A DNA stretch of 63,653 bases, filler included, from Vannella sp. (GCA_023345925.1; 6 parts of 6 records of this genome joined end to end with filler, not necessarily neighbours in it), one strand, 5' to 3'. Positions 4,901 to 62,106 are shown, counted from the first letter of the whole stretch. The notes: generated by a model from the sequence alone, not told the origin. Program-made: numbers and translations.

Positions 4901-5100
4901 TCCTTGGAGTACTGGGTCATCTCGTGGAAGTCGCTGTTGGCGAAAACGATGGGGCAATCAGGAAGGCGCATATCAGTGATGAGCATACTCTCCTCCACCT
5001 CCCTCAACCAAGGATACTCCTTTACAATCGACTCGTAGAGTTTGGAGAGCTCTTTTGGAGCGAGAGAGGTTGCAACAGGCTTCGACCCCTCGTTCCCCAT
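1901..5100 (-). CDS. LOV-SAM-PB1-like-macro-like-TKL protein kinase, 3 exons (5100-3930, 3883-3529, 3488-1901), ~1037 aa
   Basis: LOV signature GFNCRFLQG plus NYRKDG and FIAVQKDVT. SAM: WRPPQVALWL..YVGPFIENDVDGNRFL. Kinase motifs VAVK, HRDLKSLN, DIG, GTPIWMAPE, DIYSFAM. Introns 3929-3884 (GTATGA..TACTGAC..GAAG) and 3528-3489 (GTAATG..GCTAAC..CTAG) join the three ORFs in frame. Confidence 0.85.
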
Positions 5101-40398: not shown

Positions 40399-40764
40399 TC
40401 ATTCAGGGAAGTAACAATCACATGGAGACCTTCTTCCTCCGGGAACACCGCACTTAGCCACGCACCCACCTCCCCCATTCGTAAGCATAGACTGCAGCTT
40501 CGTAGCTGAGTTCGTGCTAGAGTCACACTCCGCACCCTCTCCATAAAAAGTGCTCCTCCTAAAGGTACATCTAGGCCAATCCTTTCCTACGGTGAGTGAA
40601 TTAAATTGCAAATCATTTGTTTGCTGTATTAAATAGTCCGAGGGTGAACCAATGAAAAAGAACTTCGTGTTTTAGTAATAATGATACAATAAACGGGGAT
40701 ACAAGGTCGAGAACTGGGTCAAGCCAGTGGCTTTGGTTTGTTTTTTTTGTCGCTCTCTTGTCGG

Positions 40765-43138
<2,374 letters not shown>

Positions 43139-43228
43139 AGCCTTCCCATCCCCTTTTCAAGAGGATCAAGAAGCAGTTCTATAAAAGGCACAAACCTGCA
43201 TTTCCCTTCATTTCCCTTTCTCCCTGTC

Positions 43229-46200
43229 ATGAGCGGATCTCTCTCCTCCTCCGGGGGCAGTTCGCAATCTCCTCCGCTGAAGAAGCGCCGTTCAAAGGGC
43301 TCTCCTCACTCTCAAGAAGAGTTTGGATCTGACCAAGCTTGTCCGAGGACCTCCACTTCTGTTGGTGCGTCCTCCTTCTCTCCTTGATAGTGTTCCTGAC
43401 TTGTCTGCTTCCAGAGATCAACAACGTGGTGAACACAATGAGAGACTTGTCCTCTACTCCAGTGAGTTCCCCTTTGCCCTTTGGCAGCTCTGCGTCTCCT
43501 CATCAGCAGGGTAGATCCGGTCGTCTTCTGGGTTGCTGAGTATGTGGACGGCAGAGCAGACACGTAAGAGAAGATCCTTGTCTCGGCAATATGAGTGTGG
43601 GATGAGGAAGCCAAAGAAGAGGACGTCTAGCACCCCTCTCCTCTTTGATTGGGAGTTAGAGGGTCTTTCCTACCTTCTCTCACGAGAGGAGGAGCGCATT
43701 ACATCATCTAATGCAAAGGAACGACTTCCTATCAGCCCCAAATTGCCAACACGACAGCCTTTCCTCGGTGTTGCTTCGACTAGTAAGGTAAACGAGCTCA
43801 AAGGAGAAGAGGAGGTTGAGGACATCATGCAGTACTTGCAGGAATGCGACTTTGACTTCGACTTGGAAGAAGATCTGCGCCAAAGTCAAGCCCATCGGTC
43901 CCCCATCCGAACATCTCAGAGTTCTCCTGCTCAATTAGCTTCGATACCGCACAAGTCTGAGTCTGACGGATCAGAGACGGATGAAACAGACTCGGACATC
44001 GAGAATGACTCTGAGTTTGCGGGAATCCCTCTTGAACCAAGTCGGAAGCTGCAAGACCTCCCCAAGATTGCTGCGATTGGTAGGACAGAGACGAAGGACT
44101 TCTTCCCTTCTATGAAGGAGTATCAACCTCCGTTGCGTTGTCTTGTACTAGAGGTCTGGACTTCAGCATTCTACTCTACTTCAGAAGGAAAAGGTGTTCC
44201 CTTGTCAACAAGTGAGCAAAGAAGGTCTACACCACTTGGAATTCAACAGACCCTGAAAGTCTTTGACGAGAATCGCAATATGGAGAAGAAACTCTTTCTC
44301 AGAGGAAGGTGGGCTGAAATGCCAGTTTCTGTGGGAGACTATTTGAACGTAGTTAGCTGGTCTATGACACACCAGAAGCTTTTGGAAACTTCTATTGTTG
44401 TTATTGATGACCACGAGAATGCTCTAATTCTTCATCCAGACCTTCTAATGCCAGTCAAGGAGATTGGAGGATCAATGCGATGCATGAGAATGTCGGTTCT
44501 TTCTCAGCTAGTCCGTGGAGGATCAGCAGTAAGTGAACATATTATCAAGGGAGAAGTGATCCATTCTCTCTTTGAAAGGGCTTTGATGCGGAAGAACTTT
44601 TCCACGCCCTTTCTAGAGAGCCATTTGAAGGCTCTGGTTGCCGAGAACATGGTGAAGATTCATCTATTGAACAAAAGCGTTGACTACTTCTTGGACTTGA
44701 TTCGCCCTTCATTGATTTCACTCCAACAATGGGCCCAAGCGAATCTCCAAGGAGCTGTAGTGGCTGTTGCAGCAAGAAGCACTTCCATGATGGAACTGAG
44801 TGATCGATCACAACGAAAGTGTATTAGAAAGGTTGTTGCCGTGGAGGAGAGCATTTGGTCTCCCACCTTTGGTATCAAAGGGAAGATAGACGCAACTGTC
44901 GTTTTCCAACCCAGTCCTTCGGCTTCTAGCTCCAGAACCACCCCAGATGCTCGAGCTGTCCCTCTTGAATTAAAGACCGGAAAACTCAGAGACAATCGAG
45001 GTAGTCTCGCCGACCGGGCACAAGTGGCACTCTACTCTCTCCTCTTCTCTGAACGAAACATCCCGGTCGCTGGCAAAGAGGCGAACTCTATTCACACCAA
45101 TCCCTTTCCAGAAGGGGTTCTTTGTTACATCAATCAAGATACTACTTCCCAGATCATTGTACACAGCTCGTTAAACGAGATCCACGGACTTATTCAACGC
45201 CGGAATGAGTTAGTTGCACATCGAAAGAAGAAGAATCTGCCTCCTCAAATTAAGGACAGAATGACTTGCACCTATTGTAACTATCAGAATGCATGCTACA
45301 TCTACCATCGGACTCAAGAGGCAGGATGTTCTGGAACCGCAGCAATTTCCTCTTTATGGAAACAGTATGCCGCACACTTATCTGAACGCCACTGTTCGTT
45401 CTTCTCTCGGTGGGATCAGTTTATCACCTGGGAAACAGAAGCAAGCAAGAACCCCTCGAACTCTTTTTGGAACTTTCCTTCTTCCTATCAGCAAGAGCTT
45501 GGCGTCTGCGCAGGCCAACTTCGCCTGATTTCGTCAAAATTGCCGACACAACGGTCTTCTGGGAGCCAATCCTCAACGCCACCGTCTTCAGAAGGCGGTT
45601 CAGGGTTTCTCTACCGCTTCAGGCAAGATGGAGCCACAGAGCCTTCCACTTCTCACTCTAGCCAGAGGACGTTTACTTCATCCTTTCTACCTTCTCAATC
45701 TAATGAGAAGAATCTTTTCGAGCTCCAGTTAAGCGCAGGGGACTATATTCTACTCTCTACAGAGCACGGGCACTTTGGTGTTCGCCAGGGTACCATCCAA
45801 AGTATTGGTTCTAACGTTGTTGAAGTCCTTCTTCATGAGCCACTCCAGGCACCTTACCATTTGCCCTCTTCTTTTGCGTCGGCACTTTCTTCTCCAAATT
45901 CTCAAAAAGACTTGAGAGATATTGAGGACCTGGCCACTTCGCGGTCCCATCAAATGGCACATTCTACATTGTGGCGCATTGACAAGCTGGAGTCTCAAAA
46001 CGTCTTCTCTCAGATGCGTTACAATCTGCTCCATCTCCTTGAAGCCAATCCACAAAGTCAGCGACTTCGGGAACTAATAATTGATGATAAGGCTCCCGTA
46101 TTCAGTGCAATTGACACACCATGTGATGAATTCATTCACTCCTGGAGCCAACAGTGTCCATCCATAGGTCACTTAAATGCTCATCAGCGCCTCGCTATAA

Positions 46201-47513
46201 GGAGAGTTGTGGCAGCCAAAGATTTTGCTCTTATTCTCGGGATGCCAGGAACAGGAAAGACAACTACTATTGCACATATTGTCTCTACACTGGTCCAGAA
46301 AGGCAAGCGGGTTTTACTCACCTCCTACACCCATTCGGCGGTGGATAACTTGCTGTTGAAGCTGCTAGACATGCAAGTTCCTTTCCTTCGGCTGGGCAAT
46401 GGTAGTAAACAACATAGCTCCATTGCACCACACTCGCTGGAAACTTTTGCGTCCATTGACTCCTTAAAGGAGCGACTTGCATGTCCTGTCATAGCAACAA
46501 CATGCTTGGGAGTGAATGACATGGTTCTTCAGTCCCAGCGGTTTGATTATTGCATCATTGATGAAGCCAGCCAAATTAGCTTACCTGTATGTCTGGGACC
46601 TTTGTTCTTTGCACAAACATTTGTTTTAGTGGGAGATCACTACCAATTGCCTCCGATTGTGAAGAGTACCGAAGCTATTTCGGCCGATTGCGAAAGTCTG
46701 TTTAAGCTGTTGTCAGAGAGAAGGCCAGAGTCTGTTGTCCAACTGGGAATCCAATATCGAATGAATAGTGAGATAATGAGCATCAGCAACCATCTGGTGT
46801 ACAACAATCGCCTGAAATGCGAAAACGAAGGCGTAGGAAAGGCAAGAATTGTCCTCCCAAGACTATCCAAACTCCCTATTCCTGTCCCTCCAAGTGACCA
46901 TTGGATGCTGCAAATTCTCCTTCCAAATAATCCAGTTGTTTTTGTGGATCTCGACCACGTACCAGCACTTGAGGTTACCACGAGACATCTGATTACCAAC
47001 CCTGTGGAGGCTCGCATCACCGCAATGGTAAGTTCTCTTTGTAAGATCGAGACTGAATCTCATTACTTTCAGATTGCACGTTCCCTCATTTGTGCGGGGG
47101 TCAAGGGCTCTGAAATAGGGATTATATCTCCGTATCGGTCTCAATTGAAGGCCATAAGACAGTGCACCGGCCGGTTTGCAAATATGCAGGATGTGGATAT
47201 CTTTACGGTTGACCGTTACCAAGGGAAGGATAAGGAAGCTATCATATTCTCTCTTGTAAGAAGCAATACGAAGAACAAAGTGGGAGAGCTACTGGAGGAC
47301 TGGAGGCGAGCCAATGTTGCATTCACTCGGGCGAAGACAAAGTTGATCATTCTTGGTTCTGCCTCCACTCTGTCCGGAAACCATTTCTTCTCCCTCTTTC
47401 TTCAGTTTGTCAGGGGCAATGGGTGGATGCTCTCCTTGCCACAAAATGCACATAAGACCTACCATCTTCGAGACCTCGACCCTGAAAAGGATTCTCGTTT
47501 ATCTCAGAGATAA
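43229..47513 (+). CDS. DNA2: DNA2 nuclease/helicase
   Basis: LILHPDLL, CMRMSVL, EESIWSPTFGIKGKIDAT, PLELKTG, CTYC..QNAC Fe-S motif, GMPGTGKT, IIDEASQ, VGDHYQLPP, DRYQGKD, NVAFTRAK; 5' exons approximate. Confidence 0.93.
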
Positions 47514-47689: not shown

Positions 47690-48256
47690 TTAGAGAAGAG
47701 AGCAACTGTCCTTCTTCCTTCCACTCTTCGCTGGGCCACCGTTCTTGACTTGATTGTCCTTTCTTATTTCTCGAACCAGCCCGTAAAATGCCTCTTCAAC
47801 GTTGATACGAGCCTTAGCAGAGGTCTGGTAGATCGGGACTCCGAAGGAATTTGCTACCTCCAGGCTTTCAACCAAAGTTACTTGCCGATCCTCATCCAAA
47901 TCGCATTTGTTTCCTACAAGTACCATTGGTACCTTGTCTTCCTCCTTCACGCAAAGAATCTGCTCGCGGAATTGTATCATCTCGTAGAATGAAGGGCGAA
48001 AGGTGACATCGTAAGTGCAGAGGAACCCATGAGCATTCCTTATGTAATTATCTCGAGCAGGATTGCACATGTTTTGGCCTGCAGTGTCAATGATTTCGAG
48101 AAGACAGGTCTCATCATCAACTGTGACCTGCTTTTGGTAAGAGCTCTCAATAGTCGGATCGTAGTTATCAACGAAGTGGTATTGGATGAGCTGGATAGTC
48201 AACGCCGACTTGCCCACTCCTACGCCTCCCAGAATCACGAGCTTGTATTCTGCCAT
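47690..48256 (-). CDS. Ras-family GTPase paralogue, intronless, Val12
   Basis: [36 protein letters not shown], CaaX CSLL. Confidence 0.95.
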
Positions 48257-48760: not shown

Positions 48761-49345
48761 TTAACGCAGCGCACCTCTTCCAGTGACCTTTGCTAGGACT
48801 CGTTCATGCTGATAATCTCCAATTTCAGTCAACAGAAGACCATCTAGGCAGCGTTTGGGATACACAGAGTACATTTTGCAGTCAGGATCCTTGTTGCGCG
48901 CGTCCAGTATAAACTTGACAAACTCAGTCTCGTCATCGAAAGACTCCGCGTGATTGTCTGGGAACACAACGTGATATTGGTCAGGTGATAGTGGGTCGCT
49001 CTGACGTTGAAACGGTCTATCCAGAGCGTTAAGTTGTTCTTCCAAGTCAGCCAGTTGCTCGATGAGTCTCTTCCTGGAGTATGAACTAAGTCCACGAAGA
49101 TGAAGAAGCTCTGGAATGTTGTCAAGCAGACGATTCAAGGTCCACTTCACTTGGATGAGATTCTCGTCTTCTTCGGATTCTCTTGGCCAAGAGACAGCAG
49201 TCTCTTGGATTTGGAGCTTCAAGCGCAGAATGTCAGCGGAGATCCGATTCTCTCGTTCTCGCGTCAGTGTACAGAAGGCGACATCCGTGGCGGCGTCCTT
49301 CACTTTTGCAACCAGCTCGCGCAACAAGTCCGTGCCTTTGAGCAT
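48761..49345 (-). CDS. hypothetical helical protein
   Basis: Uninterrupted ORF from MLKGTDLLREL with plausible composition; no family recognised. Confidence 0.5.
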   Translation of the reverse strand: MLKGTDLLRELVAKVKDAATDVAFCTLTRERENRISADILRLKLQIQETAVSWPRESEEDENLIQVKWTLNRLLDNIPELLHLRGLSSYSRKRLIEQLADLEEQLNALDRPFQRQSDPLSPDQYHVVFPDNHAESFDDETEFVKFILDARNKDPDCKMYSVYPKRCLDGLLLTEIGDYQHERVLAKVTGRGALR

Positions 49346-49733
49346 GGTGAACGAAAATGTGGAACTTTGTACTCGCCCAGAATGGGAATGGACGGGGAAT
49401 TCTCGAGTTTTCGTTGTTTTCTCCATAAGGGGAGCGCCGATCATCCGATCAGGGTTAGGTAACGTAAAAACCTCTTTCTCATCGGAACAAATCGAACTCG
49501 CCTCCCTGCGGCATTTTCATTGGCTGATGATCTGACCAATAAGAGACGAGCGTGGTTTGTTAATTCGGACAGAAGGCCAATTGCTCAATGATATCAACAT
49601 CTGAAACAGGGGCATGTACTGCTGTCTACTCGCTTACCAAACCCATGTACATTTACCTCCTCCATGCTGATTGCGACAGCTAGTGACTGACAGACAGATG
49701 ACAACCTTCACCTTTTGGCCTCCTCGAGCAGCA

Positions 49734-50975
49734 ATGCAAAGGAACTCCTTGCTGTGCATCGGTATCTCACTGATTCTGACTTTTGGGTTCTTCATGTTGT
49801 CTTCCCTCCCCCGAGGAGGAGAGGACTCTCAACAGGAACTCGAAGGTTTGGCCTCCAAGGAGACTCAAGGTCCATCTTCCCTCCCCCGAGGAGGAGAGGA
49901 CTCTAAACAGGAACTCGATGGCTCTCGACAGGAGTTTCTTCTTGCTTTGAAGAGATATGAGAAGCTACACAGTGATATGCTGGACGGGAAACGGCCAGGA
50001 AAGTACCTCACTTACGTCACCAACTATTCGGGATGGTCTGATCGTGTCCGCGGCTTCTTCAGCGTCGCCACGGTCGCCTTCATGACAGATCGAGCGTTCC
50101 TCTTCAAGAACAATATGGCAGACATCGATTTGGCCGCAGTATATGCCCAGGATCCCATCCGATGGTTTGCTGAGCCTGATGCGCCTCTGGTTCACAGCTT
50201 CTCGGTCGGATACATGCGACTGGAAGAGGAGCTCTTGCGAGAAGACACCATAGAGAGGATGAGAAACGAGCTGGGGAACATCGAACTCACAATGAGCGAC
50301 TGGGCTTGGGAAGACATCGCGCATCACCCACTCTTAGCGGAAGATCGCGCTCGCTTGAAGCTGGATGACGTACCTGATTGGGCTTCTTTGCTATTTGACC
50401 TCCTGTTCCCTCCTTCTCCAACGATGAAGAACGTCCTGAGGGACTACGTGGACCTGGTTCCTTCTCCTCGTATGGCCATTCACATCCGCACAGGTGTGGC
50501 GGAAGGTTCCCCGCAGTTCTTCGGTGGTTCTTTGGAAGCGTATGTTGGTAATCATATCGACTGCTTCAAGAGCGTGGTCGAGTCCGAAGGACTCGCCAAA
50601 GTTACTGTTTTCCTTGCAACAGACTATGAGCCCGCCTTTGACATTGCTCGGGGTCTCCTTGGGTCTATGCAAGGGGAGAACTTCTCCATACGCGTCATGA
50701 ATGGCTCGGCAATGGGGAACATCGGCCACCTCGTCCTTGCCCATCCCGAGAATGTACATTTGCGCGCTCATGCCGAGTGGGAGATCCTTCGACGAGCGGA
50801 ATGGCTGTTCCCTACCCGTAGCGGATACTCTCTAGTACCCTTCGGACTTCACCACTTCCCCAGTGCGCGAGCATTCACAACAAATCTCAACTCTGCTGGT
50901 GCATGTGAAGAGATTTCCCCTTTTGGGCTTGGATGGTTCTTTACAATGGAGCATCTTGGTCAATTCCCAAAGTAA
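49734..50975 (+). CDS. type II membrane GT-B fucosyltransferase-like protein (NodZ/FUT8/O-FucT-like)
   Basis: N-terminal TM; GWSDRVRG, AIHIRTG, VFLATD, TRSGYS match fucosyltransferase motifs. Confidence 0.75.
   Translation: MQRNSLLCIGISLILTFGFFMLSSLPRGGEDSQQELEGLASKETQGPSSLPRGGEDSKQELDGSRQEFLLALKRYEKLHSDMLDGKRPGKYLTYVTNYSGWSDRVRGFFSVATVAFMTDRAFLFKNNMADIDLAAVYAQDPIRWFAEPDAPLVHSFSVGYMRLEEELLREDTIERMRNELGNIELTMSDWAWEDIAHHPLLAEDRARLKLDDVPDWASLLFDLLFPPSPTMKNVLRDYVDLVPSPRMAIHIRTGVAEGSPQFFGGSLEAYVGNHIDCFKSVVESEGLAKVTVFLATDYEPAFDIARGLLGSMQGENFSIRVMNGSAMGNIGHLVLAHPENVHLRAHAEWEILRRAEWLFPTRSGYSLVPFGLHHFPSARAFTTNLNSAGACEEISPFGLGWFFTMEHLGQFPK
49800..49918. repeat. 44-bp direct repeat (75-bp period) in the GT stem region
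   Basis: tcttccctcccccgaggaggagaggactctMaacaggaactcga at 49800 and 49875. Confidence 0.9.
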
Positions 50976-51746: not shown

Positions 51747-54700
51747 CTATTGCCTTACGCGCGCTTGGTGCTCCGGTGGAATACCAGAAATGCAGCGGAA
51801 GCCCTTCGAGAGAAGTTTGTTGGCACGCAAAGCAGCATAGGTTGGATTACTCCAACTCTCATACAAGTTGAATTGGCTTTTCCTGATATTGTCAATGGTA
51901 TCATTGATGGTGTAGTTATCCACGTATACCTTTTGCTCAAAGAGGAGCTGTCCGTTTTGTTTACGAAGGCAGATGTTGTTGACATCTGCATCTGCCTGAG
52001 TTGCGGGAGTACTTCCTGGTTCCACAATATCAACGTCCACTGAATTAGTGCCAAAGGTGAGAGTTGCAGTGTTAAGGACACCTTTACCTCCCCCCAATAC
52101 CCTTCCTCGTAATTTCAACTGAAAAGTCATTCCGTTCACTTGAGCGTAGTTGGTGAACAGAGCCTCCACATTGTTGAAAGTTTGCCCCTTGGGGAGACTT
52201 GCATCAATGTCACTTGGAGGCCGATTGCGAATGACCCAGTCCCGAAGAAAACCACCATAGATTGTCATCGAGCAAGCATGCAACACAAATCGAGCAATGT
52301 GGATGAACAGATGGTCTCGTTCTCGTAAGTTAAGTGGACCTTGACTGAACAGAAGGACAGTTCTATCCGAGATTTCCCCAAGAGAATCGTCTCCACGGTC
52401 AGGAACTGGCAAATCATTTGATATCTGTTTCTCGCTCAGTTTAGCTTGTAAGTCTCCAATAATTGACGACATGTGGCGAAGAGCAGCAGAGCCCTCTAAA
52501 TGAATGGTAACTGTTTGAGTATTCACGGACAGTTCAAGGCGGAGAATGAATTTCTCTTCTCCTGAAGCGGCAACTTTCTTCCAAGCACCAATGAACTTTG
52601 CTTTAAACGCATCAAACTGTTCGGCAAATTTTGCCACATCCTTAGCAGATGCATCTGAGAGGGACAAATGGATTATTCTGGTTTGATTGACAGCAACCTC
52701 AATCCTGATAACCTCATTCTCGATCAAAGCAATCTCGTGAGGACTTGCAATCACTTTGATAGCGACAGTATTATCATCATCACCACAGATTGATATGCTA
52801 GTGTGAGGGAACTTTTGACAAAGCGCTGCTACTTGAGGTGTGGTCCAAAAATCTGCGTTGTGCTTTCGAAGGTAAACTGTGCATTTTCCTCTCGAAGTGA
52901 CACTTGGCATGAGTCCAATGCACTTGAATTTTCGTTTCAGCTTTGCAAAAGTGTCGTTTCTTACAAACGTTATTCCGTAGACAACTGGCTGAGCCATCTG
53001 ATCGCTACTAATGGCAGAAGTGTACAAGGCTTTAAAACCATCTGGAATATAATCGAAACGCACAAGAGATTGGTCGTGGATCCACGCAGAGGCTCTTGGA
53101 ATCTCCTCTTCCTTTTGGCGAGGATGAAGAGCAAACCAAGACTTCTCTTCTTCTTTTGGCAAAGAAAAGAAGACTTCATTTGGCTTGTCACCGCTGTCAC
53201 ATGTACCAACTTGGTCAAAGAAGGCAATGCAAAGTGCTTTTTCAACTGCAGATTGCCAATCTGACTCACCGCAATCAAAAGGATCATTGGCAGGGAGCAT
53301 GTGTTTGTACATGAGTCTGTGAAGATATTCCACATTGTAAGACGTCTGCTCTAGAACAGGAAGAGAGAGATCTAGGTCAAGGGCCCATTGAATCTCCTTC
53401 TGCCGCCTCCTTTGGCACAGATATTCATCGTAAATCTTCAAGTAAGTCAAGTGGTCACTCCTTGTTATGCAACCATCAGGTTGAAAGAAGATCTTTGAGT
53501 TGCTTCGCACAAGAATCCTATCTGCTCCAGCCATTAAGAGAGCTACAAGATGAGATCCTTTTTTGCCATAGCCAAGCTCGCAACAAGCCATCAAGAGTCG
53601 AGACAAGCGAATGTCAATCTCCAGTTGAAGAACCAAGATACCTTCTTTGGTTATCGCAAGGCCTTGAGGACCACGGCCCTTACTCTCAAGAAGGCCGAAG
53701 TTAACAAGTCTCTTTCTCGTGGCAACTTGGAGTGGTTCGGGAATTGGCTCTGGCATTTGGAAGTCAGAGTGCTGAATTGAAGTCTCAAGCCAATAGGAAA
53801 GTAAAATGGCTCGTTCCACGTTCGCAAACTGAATTGCTGGAGCAGAATCTGGAGCTAAAGAAGCGAATTCCGCCTCAGAATACATCCGAATGCACATTCC
53901 TGGGCCTTGGCGACCAGAACGTCCTTTCCGCTGTTCTGCAGAAGGGTGGGAGACCCACGAGGCGCTCTGACCACTCATGCTAAACTGGTTGACATAGTGA
54001 GAAGAGCGATGGAATCCCATATCGATGACATAAGACACTCCAGGAATAGTCAGTCCAGTCTCTGCCTCAGTTGTAGCAAACACAACAAGGCGCTCACTCG
54101 AGGAGTGGAACACAGATGCTCTTTGAGATTCAATAGAATCGCCACAAAGTGTTAACACTTCAATTTCGCCCTTCCCATTAGCCACTTGCTTGTCTCCGGA
54201 GAGCTTTTCGGAGGTAATTCGGACTAGTTTGTCGATTGTCGTCAATTCTTCTGGATGCGCAAGAGCTTCTTTTACATCGTAGGCTGCTTTGTGGGCCTCT
54301 TCGTCTCCAGTAACGAATACCAGAATTGTTCCTTTCTTTGTTGTAGAAATGAGCTCCAAAACAGCTTGGACAGTTGCATCTGTGCGGGCTTTGTTCTCTC
54401 CAAATTTGCCCAGTTCTTTCGAGTCACTGTCAAGTAAAGGGCGGTACTCAACAGCTACCGGAAAGGTTACTCCAGGAATGACAAGTACCCCAGATAGCAG
54501 CGTTGTTTTCCCGACCAAGTAAGAGCGGAACCATTCGCCATTGATTGTTGCACTGGTAACGACCACTCGCAGAGGAGCCTTTACAATCTGGCCAGAGCGG
54601 CGTTTAAGCATAGCCTTTACCATACCAAGGCACATGTCAATCTCGAGAGATCTTTCATGGGCCTCATCTAGAATGATGGCTCCGTACTCATGGAACTTGT

Positions 54701-56423
54701 CATCTGTTAGAAATTTGCTTGCAAAGAGCTCGTGGGTCATGAACATGATACGAGTAGAAGGTCTGAAAGATCCTTTACCGAATCCACATTCCCAGCCCAC
54801 TTCTTCTCCTAAAGCAGAGCCGCGTTCGAAAGCAACCCTTTTGGCAAGATACTCCGCATTGATTTGTCGAGGCTCCAGTACAAGCACGCGCTGCCCTGGA
54901 TCGATCACATGGTCTAGCAGATACTGTGGAATTTGGGTGCTCTTTCCTGACCCGGGAGTGGCTTGCACAACGCAAACATCCAAAGATGAGAACTTCCTGA
55001 TAAGATTCTGCTTCTCGGCGTATATCGGCAAGAGTGCTGATTTCTGATAGCCTTCTCGACGAACTTGCCAGTTAAGACGGTCTATCAGCTCTGGGTGCCT
55101 CTCAACTTGGTTTCGGTAGTTCTGAAGTTCCTCTTTGTATCGGAGGAAGGTCTGTAAACCTCGTTTGAAGATTTCAGTGACGAAAGAGTTCATCTGTGAT
55201 TCCAATTTCTTGATTTGCTCTTCTCTGAGGGCTTTTTGGCGAAGGTACTCTTCCTGGTATTTTGATTGATCCTTTTCGGGAATCACCGGGCCAAAGTCCA
55301 CAATTGCGCGAACATTAACACATTCAACGTCCATAAATACGTGCACAGGAGGGGAACCATTGATTGGGACGACTGGGTTGCCTCCTTTTAAACCACGCAT
55401 CACCAGCAAGGACCCGTTTACTCTGACATAACTCTTTGGAATATCCGTAGTGGAACTGGAATAAGCCCCGTCACCACAAGCTCGTCCATTGAGCTTTTCC
55501 TTTAGACTGAAACCAGAGTAAGAGATTGCAGTGGCACGCCAAGTCTCAGGAGTTCCGTGATAAAGAGGATAGATTTCCTCGCAACCCGGATACTTCTCCT
55601 TACAACGCTCCCAGATGCGATTTTGTTGGATAACAGCCACTTTTCGGATGAATTGGATGCGATTCTGATGAGTGGCAGGAACCAAACGGTAGATCTCTTG
55701 ATAAAATGAGCCTTTTGGATCCACAATGGACACGAGAGGCTGCGGAGGGGCGGTTGGGAAACGTATCAAATCAGTTATTGAGCTCTCGCTGAAGGTTTCC
55801 AACTTCATCAGCATCTTAAACGCCTTCAATTGGGCAGCTTCCCCTTTTTGTTGAAGGACTCGCAAGTCTCTTTCTACCTTCTCCAGCTCTTCTTGGATCT
55901 TACTCTGAACGAAAGGACGAATGCTGCAATAGAGGCGGTGAATGAGAAGGGCTCGGAACTCTGGACAGTCAATGAGATCCTGAATGGCGTCTGAAATGGG
56001 ATAAAGTTGGCCGAGGAAGTAAGCAGACTGTCCTTCTAACGCAGAAGCAGTGAACCAGCCTTGGTTAGAGCGATTCCAATGGCCATTGGAGGGATCATCA
56101 ATGACAAGGACACCGAGGCAGCGAGGTCCAAACCACATCTTGTGCGCCTTACAGAAGGCTTCATTGACCTCATCCTCATCAAACTGCACTCGAGAAGAGA
56201 ACAAACGGAGTCCAGATTGTTCAATAAGCTCCCCCTCACGTGGAACACCACCAAAATGGTGGACTTGGGGTCGCAAACCTTTCGTCGACACCTGAAGAAG
56301 CAATTGCGGGCTTCCCGACTTACTCTCCATCCGCACAACCACTACCACTACTCTTTGGTACGCCAGTTGGTCCCCCCAACGAAACCTACTCCCGGGTTCG
56401 ACCACATACGTGTCCTCGGACAT
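51747..56423 (-). CDS. NUDIX-like - PARP/ART-like - DEAH/RHA helicase (HA2) - class II nucleotidyltransferase-head fusion protein, ~1558 aa, no introns seen
   Basis: LYHGT..ISYSGF..GRACGDGAYSS (PARP-like); ATPGSGKSTQIPQY, ILDEAHER, TSATI, ATTEAETGLTIPGV, EQRKGRSGR (DEAH); IYGGFLRDW..PSDIDA..DADVNN (NTase). Confidence 0.85.
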   Translation of the reverse strand: MSEDTYVVEPGSRFRWGDQLAYQRVVVVVVRMESKSGSPQLLLQVSTKGLRPQVHHFGGVPREGELIEQSGLRLFSSRVQFDEDEVNEAFCKAHKMWFGPRCLGVLVIDDPSNGHWNRSNQGWFTASALEGQSAYFLGQLYPISDAIQDLIDCPEFRALLIHRLYCSIRPFVQSKIQEELEKVERDLRVLQQKGEAAQLKAFKMLMKLETFSESSITDLIRFPTAPPQPLVSIVDPKGSFYQEIYRLVPATHQNRIQFIRKVAVIQQNRIWERCKEKYPGCEEIYPLYHGTPETWRATAISYSGFSLKEKLNGRACGDGAYSSSTTDIPKSYVRVNGSLLVMRGLKGGNPVVPINGSPPVHVFMDVECVNVRAIVDFGPVIPEKDQSKYQEEYLRQKALREEQIKKLESQMNSFVTEIFKRGLQTFLRYKEELQNYRNQVERHPELIDRLNWQVRREGYQKSALLPIYAEKQNLIRKFSSLDVCVVQATPGSGKSTQIPQYLLDHVIDPGQRVLVLEPRQINAEYLAKRVAFERGSALGEEVGWECGFGKGSFRPSTRIMFMTHELFASKFLTDDKFHEYGAIILDEAHERSLEIDMCLGMVKAMLKRRSGQIVKAPLRVVVTSATINGEWFRSYLVGKTTLLSGVLVIPGVTFPVAVEYRPLLDSDSKELGKFGENKARTDATVQAVLELISTTKKGTILVFVTGDEEAHKAAYDVKEALAHPEELTTIDKLVRITSEKLSGDKQVANGKGEIEVLTLCGDSIESQRASVFHSSSERLVVFATTEAETGLTIPGVSYVIDMGFHRSSHYVNQFSMSGQSASWVSHPSAEQRKGRSGRQGPGMCIRMYSEAEFASLAPDSAPAIQFANVERAILLSYWLETSIQHSDFQMPEPIPEPLQVATRKRLVNFGLLESKGRGPQGLAITKEGILVLQLEIDIRLSRLLMACCELGYGKKGSHLVALLMAGADRILVRSNSKIFFQPDGCITRSDHLTYLKIYDEYLCQRRRQKEIQWALDLDLSLPVLEQTSYNVEYLHRLMYKHMLPANDPFDCGESDWQSAVEKALCIAFFDQVGTCDSGDKPNEVFFSLPKEEEKSWFALHPRQKEEEIPRASAWIHDQSLVRFDYIPDGFKALYTSAISSDQMAQPVVYGITFVRNDTFAKLKRKFKCIGLMPSVTSRGKCTVYLRKHNADFWTTPQVAALCQKFPHTSISICGDDDNTVAIKVIASPHEIALIENEVIRIEVAVNQTRIIHLSLSDASAKDVAKFAEQFDAFKAKFIGAWKKVAASGEEKFILRLELSVNTQTVTIHLEGSAALRHMSSIIGDLQAKLSEKQISNDLPVPDRGDDSLGEISDRTVLLFSQGPLNLRERDHLFIHIARFVLHACSMTIYGGFLRDWVIRNRPPSDIDASLPKGQTFNNVEALFTNYAQVNGMTFQLKLRGRVLGGGKGVLNTATLTFGTNSVDVDIVEPGSTPATQADADVNNICLRKQNGQLLFEQKVYVDNYTINDTIDNIRKSQFNLYESWSNPTYAALRANKLLSKGFRCISGIPPEHQARVRQ

Positions 56424-56700
56424 CCTCCAGCCCAAAATGGCTTCAAAACCACTCCGAATTAACCCGCAACTTGGCAAAACCGATTTAGGATATCTTTTAA
56501 GAATTAGATAATTTTCGTACACCCAACCACGTCCGCTGGCCTGCGGAGATTTCCCGAAGGAAAAGATGAAACGCTCGAGGGTCAGTTTCTGTCGACTGCT
56601 CGCGAGTGCTGAACAGATCACCTAAAACCTTCCTATTATGGGCCCAGCCCCAAAATCAAGGCCAAGGAGTGTTGAGAGCGTTTGTTTATATGTTGGACAC

Positions 56701-56902
56701 ATCAAGCAAACAGAAAGAGTAGATGAAGTCTCACGCTGCTTGGATTTTGGGGGGACGATTCACTTGGTAAGAACCCGCAAGGACGAGTACCAAAGTCAGC
56801 AAGAACCGCCACTGATGAGCACTTGGCCATTGGCGGAACTTGGCAATCGGAGTACAGACATATCATATCAAGCAAGCAAACAGAAAGAGTAGATGAAGTC
56901 TC
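56701..56902. repeat. dispersed ~30-bp direct repeat in the divergent intergenic region
   Basis: caagcaaacagaaagagtagatgaagtctc at ~56703 and ~56873. Confidence 0.85.
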
Positions 56903-57077
56903 TGATATATCAGGGGAGTAAAGGAGGCTCTTGCACCAACGAGCAAGAACATAGAAGTAGACTCCTATTCTTTAGAGCCTCATCAATACGGTCAGGCTTG
57001 ACTACGAGATGTGATATAGCCGTTAAGGTCAATACATTTGGTGCTTCTGCCAATCTTTTGCGCTGGCGATCGAGATC

Positions 57078-57190
57078 TTCTGAACGTGAGTAGGAGGTTA
57101 CTACTCACCCAGATCAAGTGCGAGTGAGAGTTTCTGAACGTGAGTAGGAGGTTACTACTCACCCAGATCAAGTGCGAGTGAGAGTTTCTG
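57078..57190. repeat. 2 x 54-bp tandem repeat, each unit with an 8-bp hairpin (gtgagtag-gaggtta-ctactcac)
   Basis: Exact duplication starting at 57078 and 57132. Confidence 0.9.
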
Positions 57191-57581
57191 GGAATCTAGA
57201 TTCCTTTACTCGTCTTAACCATACTAATAGATGGGTTTTGCACCTCTTTTACTGACTTAAGCGGCCGAACCGAGACAAAATGCGTCCTATCGGGAAAGAG
57301 CACCTGATGTCATGCTCATTTTCTCAGCCTATATCCCAATGATAGTACTATGAAGTACTTCCCTTCTAAAAAACCGTCGAAAATTCGCAAGGACTTTTGT
57401 GGGATTTTTGAGACGCCTTGAAGCTCTCACGACCTAAGATTTTATGTTAATTGGATGTTGTCATATATATCGGAAGTAAAGAGGAGATTTGGATCAAAGG
57501 GATAAAATGCGAGAGGCATTCTGATTGGCTGATAAAGTTCCCTTCTTCAGGATGGACAGTTTCTTTATTTTTTTCTCTCTC

Positions 57582-60500
57582 ATGGGCAAGGCAAAGAAGG
57601 GAGAACCTCAGGTCCGTGAGATCACCATGGCTGAATACCTAAAGCAGCAGAGGGAGAAGTTGGCCAAACTTGAGCTAAATACCTCCCAACGAACTGTCGA
57701 ATTGGGAGCCGACTTCCAACAGAAGTTCAAGCTGTTGGAGAAGGAGGAGGAAGTCCCTGAGGGAGTAAAGGTCGCCAAGAAGTCCAACAAGAAGAAGAAG
57801 GTTGCCAAGCCTAAGGCTGCTGTCATTGAGGTTGGCTTCTCTTTCATGAGCGCTTCTGACAGCACGACCGACAGCCGTCCCGATCGCAGCTCCCGTGAGG
57901 AATGCCCTCCACGTGACCGTGCCTCCCGTGAGGATCGTGGTCCTCGCAAGGGAAAGGGTGATCGACGCCCAAAGAAGGAGAGCTACTGTACCTTGTCAAG
58001 AGAGCTTGGCGAGCTGGAGGACCTTGCCTTTCGTGGATCAGACATAGACTTTGAGGAACTCACCGAAAGCGGGCGGCTTTCAGTAGAAGGGGCGACCAAC
58101 ACGTCTTGGCAGCGCTTCATCCGCTTCTTTGTCGATGAGGTTGAACCAGAGACTTGCCCGCGCACTGTTATCGAGTTGACAAAACACCCAATGTTCTGGA
58201 ATGCAAAGGAACTCAATCTGGAGGTGCTGGACGACTACCTCCAGGTATTGAGGGGTTTCCTCTTCCTTCCTGCTGCTACAGAGGAGAATCGGTTGCCTGC
58301 CCTTCTCACACACCTGAAGGAGATGGTCAAGAAAAGTTCCAAGTCTTATGGAGAGAGCAAAGTGGCAGAGTGGCTCTTTGTACTCAAAGAGTGCGACCAG
58401 CGGATGAGAGAGATCAAGAGAGTAAGAGCTGAAGTGACCGCTATGGAAGATGAGAGATTCTCAGCCTGGCAATCCCTCCAGCAACTGCCAGAGGTTCTTG
58501 CGGCACTCTCTAAGAAACAAGCACCGAGGTTCTTTGACACTCTTCAGCGATCTGGTCAGCTGGAGGAACTACTGAATAGTGCAATCGTCCCGGAAGTATC
58601 TGATAACAGTGTGGAGGTGAGAGAGAATCAAATCTCCTTCCAAAAGGTGTGGATTCCCTTTATTGAAAACGTCATCGCTTGCAGCGAGCGCTCTGTACTT
58701 CAGGCCATCATCAAGCACGAATCGTTCTTTTGGGAGATTGACAGTGTCCTCAAGAAGGTAGCACCCGACCGAAAGGCTGCTGTTGTGGCCTTCCAAGCCA
58801 CCCTTGGCTGCCTTTCGTGCATCATTCGCCTCATTCCTTCTGCTCAAGACCACTACCGAGTCACACCTCTGCTAACTTCCATCTTGGCGTTGCTTGATAA
58901 GAACGGAGGGCGCTTTGAACCGAACGGAACTCCCAATGCACTGTACATCCAATTCCATCAATGTACCGCTTCATTAGTGAGGAACGCAGACATCACTAAT
59001 CTAGAAGATCTATCCAACCAGTATGGCTGGCGCCATACCAATGATAAGGAGAATATCGATGATATTCGCCTTGCTCCTGACCTGGAAGAGATCCTTTGCC
59101 CCTTTCAAGCTCGCATTCCCACCGCTGATGGCACTTTCGAAGCATACGTAGAAAAGCAGTTCCGCATGCAAAGAGAAGAGGCTTTGAGAGGATACATGAA
59201 GGCAATGCAGTGGCTCATCCGAGAGGGCCACAAGAAGGTGCGGTCGGATCATGACTTTGTCAAATCTCCAAGTCAAAGTCTCAAAGCCATCTTCAACGTG
59301 TTCCACAACTTCGGCCACAAGGCAAATGACACATACACTTTTGACTTGCCCACGGGGGTGGGTAAAAGCGCAATCAGTCAATGGAATTACTGGAATACTG
59401 GGTCAGGCTCTAAAGACATCAGCCTCAACTGTCCGATGATGATGATGTACCGGCGAGACGGTGGCGACACACGGTTCTATCCCTGCCAAGTCATAGTTCC
59501 TGTGCAGGTATTGGAGCCGTCCATGGATCAAAGTGGCAATTTCCACTATCAAGCACCCGAGTGCGCGATTGATGTGAAAATTTTGAACTCTCCGTGGCAG
59601 GAGAAGAACTACAAGAGCCAACGGTTCCTCATTGGGCTCAAAGGGATGTTCTTTATGACTCCCCAAGCTGTTCTTGACAATCTCAAAGCATTGAAAGGTA
59701 CTATGCCTTTCCTGAAACAAATCCAAGTTCCACCTGGACCACCAGGTGCTTCACAGCCCCAGTTTGACAAATCACAAAATTACGCCCCGGCATATCTGCG
59801 CGATAGGAAGCTGGACTTTCCCATTGGCGCTCACTTCTACGATGACCCTCAGCTGACGGGTTTCGAGATAGGTGACACGTATGAGGCAACTTTGTCGAAG
59901 TTTCGCCCATTTGCTCTTGGTCTGGATGAGTCCCAGTTGGAAGCATTTGTAGCGAGTATTACACACCCAGTGGCACTAATTCAGGGACCACCAGGTACTG
60001 GAAAGAGCTTCGTTGGCGTTTATATAGCGCGTTTTCTTCTCCTCAATACCACTCGTAGCAGACCAAGTCTTCCAGCTCAATTGGATTCTGAACTCAAGGA
60101 TGATCAAATGGAAGAGATCGGAGATGAAGAGAGTGGAGAGCAAGAGAGTCTATCCGAGGCAGAAAGTGAGCCTTTCAGTGAGCAAGAATCTGATGAGGGC
60201 TCGAAGGCTGTTTTGCCAATCTTGGTAGTCGCCCAAACCAATCATGCATTGGACGAGTTCTTAATGAGCCTTATTTCTTCTGGAGCAGTCTCCAGAAAAG
60301 AAGTCCTCCGAATGGGAAAATCCATCATAAGACAAGAGCTTCGCCCCTGTTTGCTCTTGCGTGACGAGAAAGGTTCGATTAGAGAGAACGCTTGTGAGCG
60401 TGCAAGAGCGTGTAAGGTGGTGGGAATCACTACTTCAGGTTGTGCCCTTAACCCTCAACTGATTGCTGAACTGAAGCCGAAAGTTATCATTTGCGAAGAG

Positions 60501-61901
60501 GCTAGTGAAGTTTTAGAATGCCACATGCTTATGGCGCTCAGTGACAGTACAGAGCACCTTATTCTAATTGGCGACCACATGCAACTCAGTCCAAAGGTGA
60601 CCGAAATGACTCTGACTGGTGAACCCTTGAACTTCGACCGGTCACTCTTCGAGCGTCTTGTGTCTCCCTTTGACGCTATGGGCGATAAGCAGCGCGCAGG
60701 TAGGGTGGTAACTTTAAATGTCCAGCGGCGTATGCATCCATCCATCTCTCAGCTTATCAGGCACCCTGAACTCTACCCGAATCTGAAGGATTTGCCGACA
60801 ATTGAGGAGTATGTTCCAGCTGGCTTTCCCTTTAACGTTTGGTTTTTGGACCACAATGGACCAGAGAGTCAACCGCGCAACTCGACTTCTCATTGTAATC
60901 TTCAAGAGGCACGGATTGCTCTTCAAATGGCCAAGTTTCTCGTTTATCAAGGAAACAGGGAGATCGTCATCATCTCTCCCTACCAGGCTCAAATTGATGA
61001 GTTCAACAGAATGCTAGATGAACCTGAATATCAAATGCAATTGGAAGTGCCCGGTAACTATGGGCCGGAACTACAAACGTTCCCTTTGCGGAACTCTATC
61101 CGATTGGCAACCATCGATAGCTTCCAAGGAGAAGAGTCGGGTATAGTCATCCTTTCTCTTGTCCGGAACAATGCCCAAGGCGGAATGGGGTTCCTTAACC
61201 GCAACCGAATCAACGTTATGCTGTCACGGGCAAAGTACTGCCTTATCGTTCTGGGTTCCACAAAGACCATCATGAAGAAACGGGGCAAAAATCAAACCGC
61301 CGTGCTTTCTGACGCTGTGAAGACCCTCCAATCCCAGAACCGAGTCCATGAGGAACTTCCTCTTCGCTGCTTCAATCATAGCACTGAGATTCAATATGCA
61401 CATCCAGACCATCTCGACAAGTATTGCAAGGATGGTGGTTGCGACAAGCCATGCGAGGGTGTCTACTACAGATGTGGCCATGCCTGTCCGAGGAATTGCC
61501 ATTACCACGACCGAGAGCACAAGTTCGACTGTCCCAAAATACTGGAAAAGGTCTACCCGGGCTGCCTCCATGTGCAGAACTATCCTTGTTCCGGTCCTGT
61601 GCCAAACCAATGCCCTGAGGTGGTTGCGGTTGATGCGCTGAAGGAGTGTCCTCATTTGACTGTCCCATGCCACAAGTTGAAAGAGCGTGAGCTCCCTGGG
61701 TACAAGTGTCGGCAGCCATGTCCTGAGATCTGCCAGTCCTGCAACCAAACCTGCCTTACTCCTTGTTACGAATGTGCTCACAATGATCGCAAACAAAAAC
61801 GACGGAACGAGGCCACCTGCTCGCGTTGCCAGAAACGAGAGGAAGTTCCCAAGAAGAAGAAGAAGTTCGCGAACACGAAGAAGAAGAAGAAGCGGCGCTA
61901 A
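57582..61901 (+). CDS. ZNFX1-like SF1 (UPF1-like) helicase with C-terminal NF-X1-type Cys/His fingers, no introns seen
   Basis: QFRMQREE, IQGPPGTGKS, QTNHALDEFL, CEEASEVLE, LIGDHMQL, SLFERL, QRRMHPSI, TIDSFQGEE, RINVMLSRAK, then GGCDKPC...CGHACPRNCH fingers. Confidence 0.9.
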   Translation: MGKAKKGEPQVREITMAEYLKQQREKLAKLELNTSQRTVELGADFQQKFKLLEKEEEVPEGVKVAKKSNKKKKVAKPKAAVIEVGFSFMSASDSTTDSRPDRSSREECPPRDRASREDRGPRKGKGDRRPKKESYCTLSRELGELEDLAFRGSDIDFEELTESGRLSVEGATNTSWQRFIRFFVDEVEPETCPRTVIELTKHPMFWNAKELNLEVLDDYLQVLRGFLFLPAATEENRLPALLTHLKEMVKKSSKSYGESKVAEWLFVLKECDQRMREIKRVRAEVTAMEDERFSAWQSLQQLPEVLAALSKKQAPRFFDTLQRSGQLEELLNSAIVPEVSDNSVEVRENQISFQKVWIPFIENVIACSERSVLQAIIKHESFFWEIDSVLKKVAPDRKAAVVAFQATLGCLSCIIRLIPSAQDHYRVTPLLTSILALLDKNGGRFEPNGTPNALYIQFHQCTASLVRNADITNLEDLSNQYGWRHTNDKENIDDIRLAPDLEEILCPFQARIPTADGTFEAYVEKQFRMQREEALRGYMKAMQWLIREGHKKVRSDHDFVKSPSQSLKAIFNVFHNFGHKANDTYTFDLPTGVGKSAISQWNYWNTGSGSKDISLNCPMMMMYRRDGGDTRFYPCQVIVPVQVLEPSMDQSGNFHYQAPECAIDVKILNSPWQEKNYKSQRFLIGLKGMFFMTPQAVLDNLKALKGTMPFLKQIQVPPGPPGASQPQFDKSQNYAPAYLRDRKLDFPIGAHFYDDPQLTGFEIGDTYEATLSKFRPFALGLDESQLEAFVASITHPVALIQGPPGTGKSFVGVYIARFLLLNTTRSRPSLPAQLDSELKDDQMEEIGDEESGEQESLSEAESEPFSEQESDEGSKAVLPILVVAQTNHALDEFLMSLISSGAVSRKEVLRMGKSIIRQELRPCLLLRDEKGSIRENACERARACKVVGITTSGCALNPQLIAELKPKVIICEEASEVLECHMLMALSDSTEHLILIGDHMQLSPKVTEMTLTGEPLNFDRSLFERLVSPFDAMGDKQRAGRVVTLNVQRRMHPSISQLIRHPELYPNLKDLPTIEEYVPAGFPFNVWFLDHNGPESQPRNSTSHCNLQEARIALQMAKFLVYQGNREIVIISPYQAQIDEFNRMLDEPEYQMQLEVPGNYGPELQTFPLRNSIRLATIDSFQGEESGIVILSLVRNNAQGGMGFLNRNRINVMLSRAKYCLIVLGSTKTIMKKRGKNQTAVLSDAVKTLQSQNRVHEELPLRCFNHSTEIQYAHPDHLDKYCKDGGCDKPCEGVYYRCGHACPRNCHYHDREHKFDCPKILEKVYPGCLHVQNYPCSGPVPNQCPEVVAVDALKECPHLTVPCHKLKERELPGYKCRQPCPEICQSCNQTCLTPCYECAHNDRKQKRRNEATCSRCQKREEVPKKKKKFANTKKKKKRR

Positions 61902-62106
61902 CGTCTAATGTCATGATCTATTCATCATAAACACAGATCATGAACCCTAAAACTTGCTGTGAGAGAGTTCACGGCCCCACTAAACCACGTCCGCTGGCCC
62001 TGGTTAAAAAGTGCCCTTTAATTCGATCGGGACCTTTACCAATGGACTTTTTATGGGTTTTGGTCGGGGTACTTTTTTGGCTCATTTGACCATCCCTCCA
62101 AACGAG

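Follow-up and report, generated by a model that had tools for sequence, protein, structure and literature searches.

Helicases of the ZNFX1 type have been linked to enzymes that tail RNA. ZNFX-1 of C. elegans binds pUGylated RNA, and Hrr1 of S. pombe acts with Cid12 and an RNA-dependent RNA polymerase (RdRP), according to the available text of PMC9276528. This text bears out the tie to tailing enzymes on which the original prediction for the present locus drew. Human ZNFX1, whose domain order was taken from PMC13710534, is a chain of 1918 amino acids.

A second set of relevant enzymes consists of the ADP-ribosyltransferases (ARTs) of the PARP family. Loss of the catalytic Glu is a mark of mono-ARTs (PMC2964712, available part). 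PARP10, PARP11 and PARP15 ADP-ribosylate phosphorylated RNA ends, and these marks are removed by macrodomains and NUDT16 (PMC6582358, portion consulted).

We analysed a window of 63,653 nucleotides from Vannella sp. (GCA_023345925.1), made up of several contigs concatenated via N44-12 bp-N44 joins. Two genes in it, A and B, had been proposed to form a two-gene module for RNA surveillance or immunity.

Layout of the locus

Both genes lie within the contig at 40399-62106 of the window. Gene A (51747..56423, minus strand) encodes 1558 amino acids in one open frame, as judged from the ORF call, colinear homologues and the family tally. Gene B (57552..61901, plus strand) encodes a ZNFX1-like SF1 (UPF1-type) helicase of 1449 amino acids, also in a single open frame, with Pfam matches to AAA_11 and AAA_12. 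The genes are head to head, and the ATG-to-ATG distance is 1128 bp, in agreement with the predicted divergent pair on one contig with about 1.15 kb between the starts. Both had also been called intronless. Each was indeed an uninterrupted frame, and as judged from these frames alone both genes would appear to be free of introns.

Gene A was colinear over its full length with homologues P0001 (38%) and P0003 (34%). Its ATG is preceded by 66 open codons. Because a 7-base deletion hits these codons in one contig each of sequencing runs X1 and X2 (depth <5), the ATG at 56423 was retained as the start. The same contig also encodes Dna2, Ras and a DEAD-box gene (Pfam). A Pfam search of it revealed neither an RdRP nor an Argonaute, and an Rfam search gave zero matches.

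Domains of gene A

A starts with a Nudix (likely dead), a mono-ART and a coiled linker, goes on with a DEAH helicase (RecA1, RecA2, HA2, OB) and a pair of degenerate KH-like domains, and ends in a nucleotidyltransferase (NTase) of class II-like type. The predicted PARP-DEAH-NTase fusion was recovered in all three parts: the DEAH helicase by Pfam and by its match to Prp43, the PARP-like ART by a family profile, and the NTase by its fold. Pfam and PDB sequence searches with A's own ART and NTase sequences recognised neither domain. The top-ranking matches of A, among them YEATS, EVH1 and NheA, were dismissed as spurious. The Nudix and the KH pair had not been part of the prediction.

The ART (55269..55751, minus strand; residues 225-385) carries H289-Y320-V359 and is of the mono-ART type. 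Its family profile (A6) found PARP12 as the nearest PDB entry (E 1.7e-6); the pairing of V359 with the PARP12 Ile falls in a second, weak segment (5 bits). In the Atlas the domain fell in the PF00644 cluster (0.96). The column of the catalytic Glu contained Val, Ile or Ser, and never Glu, in 22 N-terminal-type ARTs including A. Thus A has the PARP His and Tyr and lacks the Glu of the H-Y-E triad found in poly-ARTs of the PARP1 and tankyrase type.

With the PARP12, PARP10, PARP14 and ZAP-type mono-ARTs, A shares the closeness to PARP12 and the H-Y-hydrophobic triad, and its relatives share Macro, WWE and KH domains. Unlike them, its ART is joined to a DEAH helicase, a Nudix and a nucleotidyltransferase. 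Since the catalytic domain of PARP12, the closest solved ART, left RNA unmodified in the available part of PMC6582358, the target of the ART may be a protein.

The NTase (51750..52406, minus strand; residues 1340-1558) resembles the head and neck of class II CCA-adding enzymes and bacterial poly(A) polymerases. An AF2 model (pLDDT 93.6) matched FAM46C and CCA/A-adding enzymes in Foldseek (E 3e-5 to 4e-4). The best VIA match of the model was the CCA enzyme of T. maritima (Z 12.3, rmsd 3.2, 171 residues aligned). Over this group, which includes TENT5 (FAM46), itself class II-like (PMC7049688, available part), Z was 9-12, and A carries the G-G-x-x-R-D...D-x-D...D signature. The catalytic residues D1405, D1407 and D1465 were conserved in 53, 54 and 50 of 54 aligned rows, respectively. 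The predicted head-and-neck fold and the three carboxylates point to a class II nucleotidyltransferase.

Unlike the group, the NTase of A has no body or tail domains, ends at the neck and is C-terminal to a helicase. CCA-adding enzymes proper are typified by these domains together with E-D-x-x-R, the amino-acid template motif. This motif was missing from A, in which no conserved E/D precedes the conserved Arg1533; A therefore did not classify as a CCA-adding enzyme proper.

The original prediction had pointed to RDE-3 (MUT-2) and Cid12 as nucleotidyltransferases that work with ZNFX1 relatives. A close kinship of the NTase of A with them was not supported. The enzymes have the Pol-beta superfamily in common, and the NTase of A is also predicted to add untemplated nucleotides to RNA. 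However, Cid1 ranked only 18th in Foldseek (E 0.014, TM 0.29) and was not among the 50 VIA matches listed. No Pfam match to a PAP-associated domain was found in A. Because the fold is class II-like and Cid1 ranked far lower, the likeness to RDE-3 and Cid12 is one of likely function only.

The nearest structural neighbours of the NTase model in BFVD were Megavirus and Klosneuvirus proteins (E 6e-10). Its Atlas neighbours at 0.95 were Gad2-like phage NTases (Gad2 in 12-30% of members), Gad2 being a predicted NTase (10.1101/2023.05.01.538930, available part). These phage and giant-virus proteins differ from A in being viral and stand-alone, without helicase or ART. A tblastn search of phage records gave no match to the NTase.

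The helicase (52974..55031, minus strand; residues ~465-1150) matched Pfam DEAD/Helicase_C, and Prp43 (E 2.8e-54) and Prp16 were its closest matches. Walker A, DEAH, SAT and motif VI (QRxGRxGR) were intact, as expected of a DEAH/RHA helicase. Motif V showed a single Asn-to-Thr change, unique among the eight sequences compared. The HA2 and OB domains of the family were significant in homologues only, not in A itself.

The Nudix-fold domain (56034..56366, minus strand; approximately residues 20-130) was assigned through homologues that match NUDIX (P0003, E 3.2e-5; P0005, 1.4e-10). The Nudix box, R-E-x-x-E-E, was kept in 15 of the 17 aligned homologues and reads R-L-F-S-S-R in A. From the loss of the catalytic glutamates, the Nudix of A is likely dead and would not classify as a hydrolase.

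The two KH-like domains (52419..52856, minus strand; approximately residues 1190-1335) were likewise assigned via homologues, with KH_1 at E 9.7e-4 in P0066 and KH_SLS1_1 at E 0.002-0.005 in P0028 and P0060, all of them below the Pfam cut-offs. In the alignment, the GxxG loop was present in many homologues and gone in A, P0001 and P0003. Its loss, being common to these three, is old.

The fusion family

The ART-DEAH-NTase order recurred in 19 further clusters at 50% identity among 104 NTase matches. Seven of these 19 had a Macro domain, and an intact Nudix was also often present. An alternative order, DEAH-ART-WWE-NTase, was found in seven clusters of the same 104, which brought the family to at least 27 clusters (20 + 7). 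Members were only 24-49% identical in the NTase. Domain order was shuffled, and Macro, Nudix, WWE and PARG domains were gained or lost. Such shuffling, gain and loss are typical of conflict systems.

A tree of the NTase domain was poorly resolved, with the two architectures interleaved. In the helicase tree, the terminal branch of A was the longest (1.13 vs 0.62 and 0.82 in its two sisters).

No description of the ART-DEAH-NTase architecture was found in the literature searched (general papers by title or abstract start), and no characterised PARP is known to unite a DEAH helicase, a Nudix and a nucleotidyltransferase on its chain. Related fusions may figure in a 2016 review on RNA-repair conflict systems. 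The fusion family is the solid and novel part of the case.

In JGI metagenomes, queries A1 and A6 gave 144 and 301 pattern matches, with no homologue locus confirmed. A GTDB genome scan, and scans of viral contigs with NTase, ART and B queries, gave none either. The A8 scan of viral contigs gave three weak loci (E 8e-6 to 7e-4), of which the one inspected (L001) was a stand-alone viral ORF carrying the motif.

Gene B resembles a trimmed ZNFX1

The prediction of a ZNFX1-like helicase was well supported: B matched human ZNFX1 at E 3.4e-58, far ahead of UPF1 (1.3e-25). Its UPF1-like SF1 core (59913..61286, plus strand; residues 788-1245) was nearer to ZNFX1 than to UPF1 or SEN1, and human ZNFX1 was the best solved relative of B within the group that also holds C. 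elegans ZNFX-1 and S. pombe Hrr1. As in the human protein, the core runs on into NFX1-type zinc fingers. These form a short Cys/His-rich run (61362..61826, plus strand) followed by a lysine-rich tail; they aligned to human ZNFX1 through its first fingers and gave no Pfam zf-NFX1 match.

B differs from human ZNFX1 in three respects. The expanded 1C/1Z insertion that bears the blocking helix is missing; in the 9q9z alignment the short 1C region of B spans 923-952 (~30 residues), against 769-1063 (~290) in the human chain. B ends ~110 residues past the last aligned finger, which leaves no room for twelve fingers and an RZ/Z-RING E3 module. Finally, only B has an acidic insert in RecA1 (60054..60215, plus strand; residues 835-888), with 18 D/E vs 4 K/R in 54 residues. 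One may speculate that it acts as an RNA-mimic brake. Residues 1-787, where ARM repeats were in question, gave no Pfam or PDB sequence match.

The spacer and copy number

The divergent spacer (56424..57551, 1128 bp) contains repeats. A 54-bp stretch is duplicated in tandem (57066-57173), one of 30 bp recurs as a direct repeat (56703/56873), and there is a dispersed repeat (56761-56830). A further motif, of 15 bp (56527-56541), is also present in the repeat at the contig end. This last, a high-copy dispersed repeat (61961..62106), starts 60 bp past the B stop; summed contig depth was 210-245 in the last bin vs ~2-17 elsewhere, with many loose ends. A tblastn search of the spacer for a Macro exon upstream of A gave one weak 27-residue match (E 0.025), which was rejected.

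Copies were compared on contigs from three runs of one study (X1-X3), possibly including the source sample; run X4 (share 0.06, short pieces only) was left out. Among the matches listed (23 of 142 contig records), 6 of the 13 contigs over B diverged by 7-13%, and all 10 over A differed by 0-4 bases. All 40 substitutions among the matches listed (of 407) fell in B, and two indels agreed with P0002. This indicated a second, ~88% identical B copy in the same samples, and none of the listed contigs showed a diverged copy of A in a comparison that sees A copies down to 80% identity. The adjoining ORF 49698-50975 likewise has diverged copies, and the block is flanked by repeats.

Are A and B a dedicated pair?

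Gene blocks in the window were read from ORFs, Pfam matches and codon score. Six of the 21 neighbouring pairs were divergent, so that the head-to-head orientation of A and B alone is no more than chance. Four of the other five divergent gaps were shorter than 1128 bp (188-482 bp), and one, uncertain, was 2144 bp. On assumed gene counts, the naive chance of finding A beside an RNA-immunity-type helicase was 0.03-0.2% per A-type gene, a figure tempered by the post hoc choice of the pair out of a very large scan. No ZNFX1-type segment fused to NTase/ART-family proteins was present among the proteins compared. Taken together, the second B copy, the long repeat-bearing spacer, the commonness of divergence and the absence of a fusion lean against an obligate pair.

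Discussion

We consider it about an even chance that the likely task of A, a PARP12-like/DEAH/class II-like NTase protein, is to edit the ends of RNA that is foreign or damaged, and that B, a trimmed ZNFX1-like helicase likely in the same broad field of RNA defence, adjoins it probably by local clustering. The listed contigs, diverged over B and near-identical over A, support this loose linkage, as do the diverged copies of ORF 49698-50975 and the flanking repeats. Against the reading as a whole stand the rarity of the adjacency under the naive model, the lack of a direct tie of the fusion family to viruses and the long helicase branch of A.

Domain order, catalytic residues and family breadth were observed; the mechanism is what we infer. 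The NTase would add untemplated nucleotides to a free 3'-OH, and the tail could be the loading site for the DEAH motor. DEAH-family helicases move 3'-to-5'. The H-Y-V ART would put one ADP-ribose on a phosphorylated RNA end or a bound protein. In the relatives of A, Macro and Nudix domains may read or remove this mark; A, having no Macro domain and a Nudix that is likely dead, would be write-only. Because writer, eraser, motor and RNA-binding domains are kept together, they probably serve one RNA-directed pathway. SF1B helicases translocate opposite to DEAH motors, and B would accordingly travel along single-stranded RNA in the other direction and would lack the ubiquitin-ligase output that human ZNFX1 has.

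A dedicated two-gene module, as first predicted, appears unlikely. A shared bidirectional promoter would co-express A and B, with A tailing and ADP-ribosylating RNA that B binds and keeps or unwinds. The head-to-head layout, the naive adjacency chance on assumed counts and the precedents of ZNFX-1 with pUG RNA and Hrr1 with Cid12 (PMC9276528, available text) speak for it; moreover, B has no E3 output of its own, so a partner could supply one. But B has a second copy to which no diverged copy of A corresponds in the listed contigs, divergent pairs are common, the A/B gap exceeds four of the other five, and the spacer holds repeats. The NTase class is unlike that of Cid12 and RDE-3, the contig yielded neither an RdRP nor an Argonaute, and no A/B fusion occurred among the proteins compared. 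Equally doubtful is the bolder form, an undescribed protist RNA-immunity unit under one bidirectional promoter, in which the editor would cap one end of viral RNA, tail the other and hand the RNA to the E3-less ZNFX1. If true, it would unite at one locus two arms of RNA immunity in animals, that of PARPs and macrodomains and that of ZNFX1 and tailing.

It is no less improbable that the two are chance neighbours with housekeeping roles, neither immune-specific, A repairing or policing cellular RNA ends (tRNA, rRNA, mRNA quality control) and B being an ordinary ZNFX1-type silencing helicase. The closeness of the NTase to CCA/A-adding enzymes and TENT5 poly(A) polymerases, that of the helicase to Prp43 and Prp16, and the neighbouring Dna2, Ras and DEAD-box genes would fit, but the shuffled domain order with its gains and losses, the low NTase identity and the giant-virus neighbours in BFVD would not. 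The broken Nudix box, the motif V change, the absent GxxG loop and the longest terminal branch might suggest that this copy of A is a paralogue in decay, or disarmed in part, with only some domains working. This is very unlikely given the 1558-codon open frame, the intact Walker A, DEAH, motif VI, ART H-Y and all three NTase Asp residues, the age of the KH loop loss, and the 0-4 base differences over A in the listed contigs of three runs.

On our preferred reading of A as an editor of RNA ends, the family is of interest in itself. RNA ADP-ribosylation has been demonstrated in vitro and in cells. In at least 27 clusters, one chain unites an ART and its probable erasers, Macro and Nudix, with a DEAH motor, with KH domains and with an enzyme of the tailing type. 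This offers a single-protein system in which to look for a coupling of ADP-ribose capping to 3' tailing on a single RNA, and A, naturally eraser-free, is a ready comparison to its eraser-bearing relatives. If the linkage to a ZNFX1-like helicase recurs, the logic of Hrr1/Cid12 and ZNFX-1/RDE-3 would hold for protists too, there with a tailing enzyme from an unrelated class.

The multi-enzyme family of gene A

Pfam recognized only the DEAH core of gene A (51747-56423, minus strand; 1558 aa), the PARP-DEAH-NTase (nucleotidyltransferase) fusion. This core lay nearest Prp43 (E 2.8e-54) and retains intact Walker A, DEAH, SAT and VI motifs. A search of longer proteins with the last 219 residues gave one full-length homologue, P0001, which was colinear with gene A at 38% identity. 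Searching with the ADP-ribosyltransferase (ART) region added P0003 (full length) and the partial proteins P0004 and P0005, the last bearing Macro and Nudix domains.

The family was scanned with Pfam (28 long matches, 21 others and 54 aligned rows), and the architectures of 107 proteins plus gene A were tallied with our own profiles. Counting gene A, 20 proteins showed the order ART-DEAH-NTase, and 7 of these 20 also had Macro; another 7 proteins showed DEAH-ART-WWE-NTase. The rest were mostly NTase-only pieces, or carried WWE, LRR, RRM, kinase or PARG domains. In a helicase tree of 26 rows, the two architectures formed separate clades (100/100); gene A clustered with P0001 and P0003 (99/96) and had the longest end branch.

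The NTase was also seen fused to microbial PARG plus WWE, a protein kinase, LRRs, RRM or a CCCH finger (P0048, P0055, P0095, P0102, P0103 and P0106). Judged from these sequences, it is a mobile effector-like domain, without a Pfam model of its own.

ART, Nudix and KH-like domains

A profile of four ART sequences gave PARP12 as its best match (E 1.7e-6), the nearest of the solved ARTs, with V359 of gene A aligned to the Ile of PARP12 in a second, weakly matching stretch. The Atlas assignment agreed with the PARP type (0.96). His and Tyr were kept in the family, and the third catalytic column was without any Glu. Since loss of the catalytic Glu marks mono-ARTs (PMC2964712, available portion), this suggested that the gene A ART is of the mono-ART type.

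The N-terminus of gene A has a Nudix fold with a broken Nudix box, which was intact in 15 of the 17 aligned homologues. Between the OB and NTase domains of the family, two KH-like units gave sub-threshold Pfam matches in 3 of the 11 proteins scanned. The KH GxxG loop was present in many relatives and absent from gene A, P0001 and P0003.

A class II-like NTase

An exhaustive search gave 104 NTase representatives at E up to 0.001. An AlphaFold2 model, built from an alignment with 53 shorter representatives, had a pLDDT of 93.6. Foldseek placed FAM46/TENT5 and class II tRNA nucleotidyltransferases at the top (E 3e-5 to 4e-4); OAS1 and Cid1 ranked much lower. In the VIA comparison within the Foldseek top 1000, the Thermotoga maritima CCA enzyme (Z 12.3, rmsd 3.2, 171 aligned) was followed in rows 2-30 only by class II enzymes or FAM46, itself class II-like (PMC7049688, in part).

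The three catalytic Asp were kept in 54, 53 and 50 of the 54 aligned rows. The NTase shares the class II fold of CCA-adding enzymes, and no CCA template motif was seen in the alignment. The nearest predicted viral structures were giant-virus proteins, and the Atlas neighbours were phage Gad2/PolyA_pol-like clusters. An 861-aa ORF with the same NTase signature lies on a giant-virus contig (L001, 6690-9275), adjoining a gene labeled MutS-like from its translation.

A model for gene A

We consider an RNA-end-editing model, with loose clustering of genes A and B, about evenly balanced. The architecture and catalytic residues of gene A are established by the comparisons above; the mechanism is inferred. 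The NTase would tail a free 3'-OH, and the DEAH motor would load onto the tail so made. The ART would attach a single ADP-ribose, either to a phosphorylated end of the RNA or to a bound protein. The Macro and Nudix domains of relatives would reverse this mark, and gene A would be write-only. According to PMC6582358, such domains reverse the marks on PARP10/TRPT1 products, and no RNA modification was observed with the PARP12 domain itself.

Gene B

The best solved relative of gene B (57552-61901, plus strand; 1449 aa), a ZNFX1-like SF1 helicase, was human ZNFX1 (E 3.4e-58; UPF1, E 1.3e-25), and the aligned region covers the helicase core and reaches the first zinc fingers. Gene B has about 30 residues at the position of about 290 in the human chain, where human ZNFX1 has an expanded 1C/1Z with an autoinhibitory blocking helix, and it ends too early to contain the human E3 module (human features from the available part of PMC13710534). 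Its RecA1 holds a 54-residue acidic insert instead. With residues 140-800 as the query, the homologue P0002 was the sole match (85% identity).

The A/B locus

The contigs of the window are separated by N44-12 bp-N44 spacers, and genes A and B both lie on contig 40399-62106. Their start ATGs are 1128 bp apart on opposite strands, confirming the predicted head-to-head layout. The A/B stretch was represented in three biofilm metagenome runs (X1-X3), all from one study. Pfam matches elsewhere in the window (Ras, NPRL3, RCC1, a tyrosine-kinase-like kinase and DNA pol phi) indicated a eukaryotic host, putatively a gene-dense protist and perhaps an amoebozoan.

The A/B contig also carries a DEAD-box gene (about 40685-43184) and a Dna2 nuclease-helicase (43542-47513, plus; one 1323-codon frame), a third helicase-type gene there. 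A Ras homologue (47690-48256, minus; best PDB E 2.3e-63) naturally carries Val at residue 12 and Ser at residue 38, and its switch II is divergent. By analogy with G12V, its GTPase activity may be impaired. Two ORFs without Pfam matches stand head to head across 253 bp, at 48761-49444 (minus; 227 aa) and 49698-50975 (plus; 425 aa), the former flanked by repeat-like sites near 48745 and 49443. The 425-aa ORF has a membrane anchor at its N-terminus, an internal duplication of 47 bp and motifs reminiscent of GT-B fucosyltransferases; diverged copies of it occur in runs X1-X3. A high-copy dispersed repeat lies at 61961-62106, and an exact 15-bp piece of it at 56527-56541, about 100 bp upstream of the gene A ATG. 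On other contigs, an ORF at 37858-40017 (plus; 719 aa) gave weak LRR matches and has a unit of about 263 bp repeated in tandem within it (83% identity), and PAS, SAM and tyrosine-kinase-like domains run across adjacent same-strand ORFs at 1901-5130 (minus), which are probably one spliced sensor kinase.

For a comparison of linkage, JGI metagenomes, viral contigs and GTDB were searched, and no homologue loci were found. The original prediction read the pair as a co-regulated RNA-surveillance or immune module. Its link to tailing enzymes stood, in that ZNFX-1 binds pUG-tailed RNA and Hrr1 works with Cid12 (PMC9276528, available part); the class II-like NTase of gene A would resemble RDE-3 and Cid12 only in likely function. 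The naive chance of adjacency, 0.03-0.2% on assumed gene counts and for a pair chosen post hoc, also favors a dedicated two-gene module. On the other hand, 6 of the 21 neighboring gene blocks of the window are divergent, the A/B gap exceeds four of the other five divergent gaps, and the spacer contains duplications and a dispersed repeat, with the high-copy repeat following gene B. Among the proteins compared, none joined the NTase/ART family to a B-like segment.

Among the 23 contig records listed (of 142), the 10 on gene A showed 0-4 base differences, and 6 of the 13 on gene B differed by 7-13%. All 40 substitution rows listed (of 407) fell in gene B, and two indels matched P0002. Together these indicated a second B copy in these samples, which could represent a paralogue or come from a sister lineage; no diverged A copy appeared among the contigs listed, where one under 80% identity would escape detection. 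This also speaks against a dedicated module, which is unproven and in our estimate unlikely. We regard as similarly doubtful that A and B are housekeeping genes that are neighbors by chance. That gene A is a decaying copy is the least probable reading.

No paper describing the ART-DEAH-NTase architecture was found in the literature searched, including the available part of PMC9503650. The well-supported new element is the family of multi-enzyme proteins to which gene A belongs, a variant among the RNA-associated mono-ARTs.
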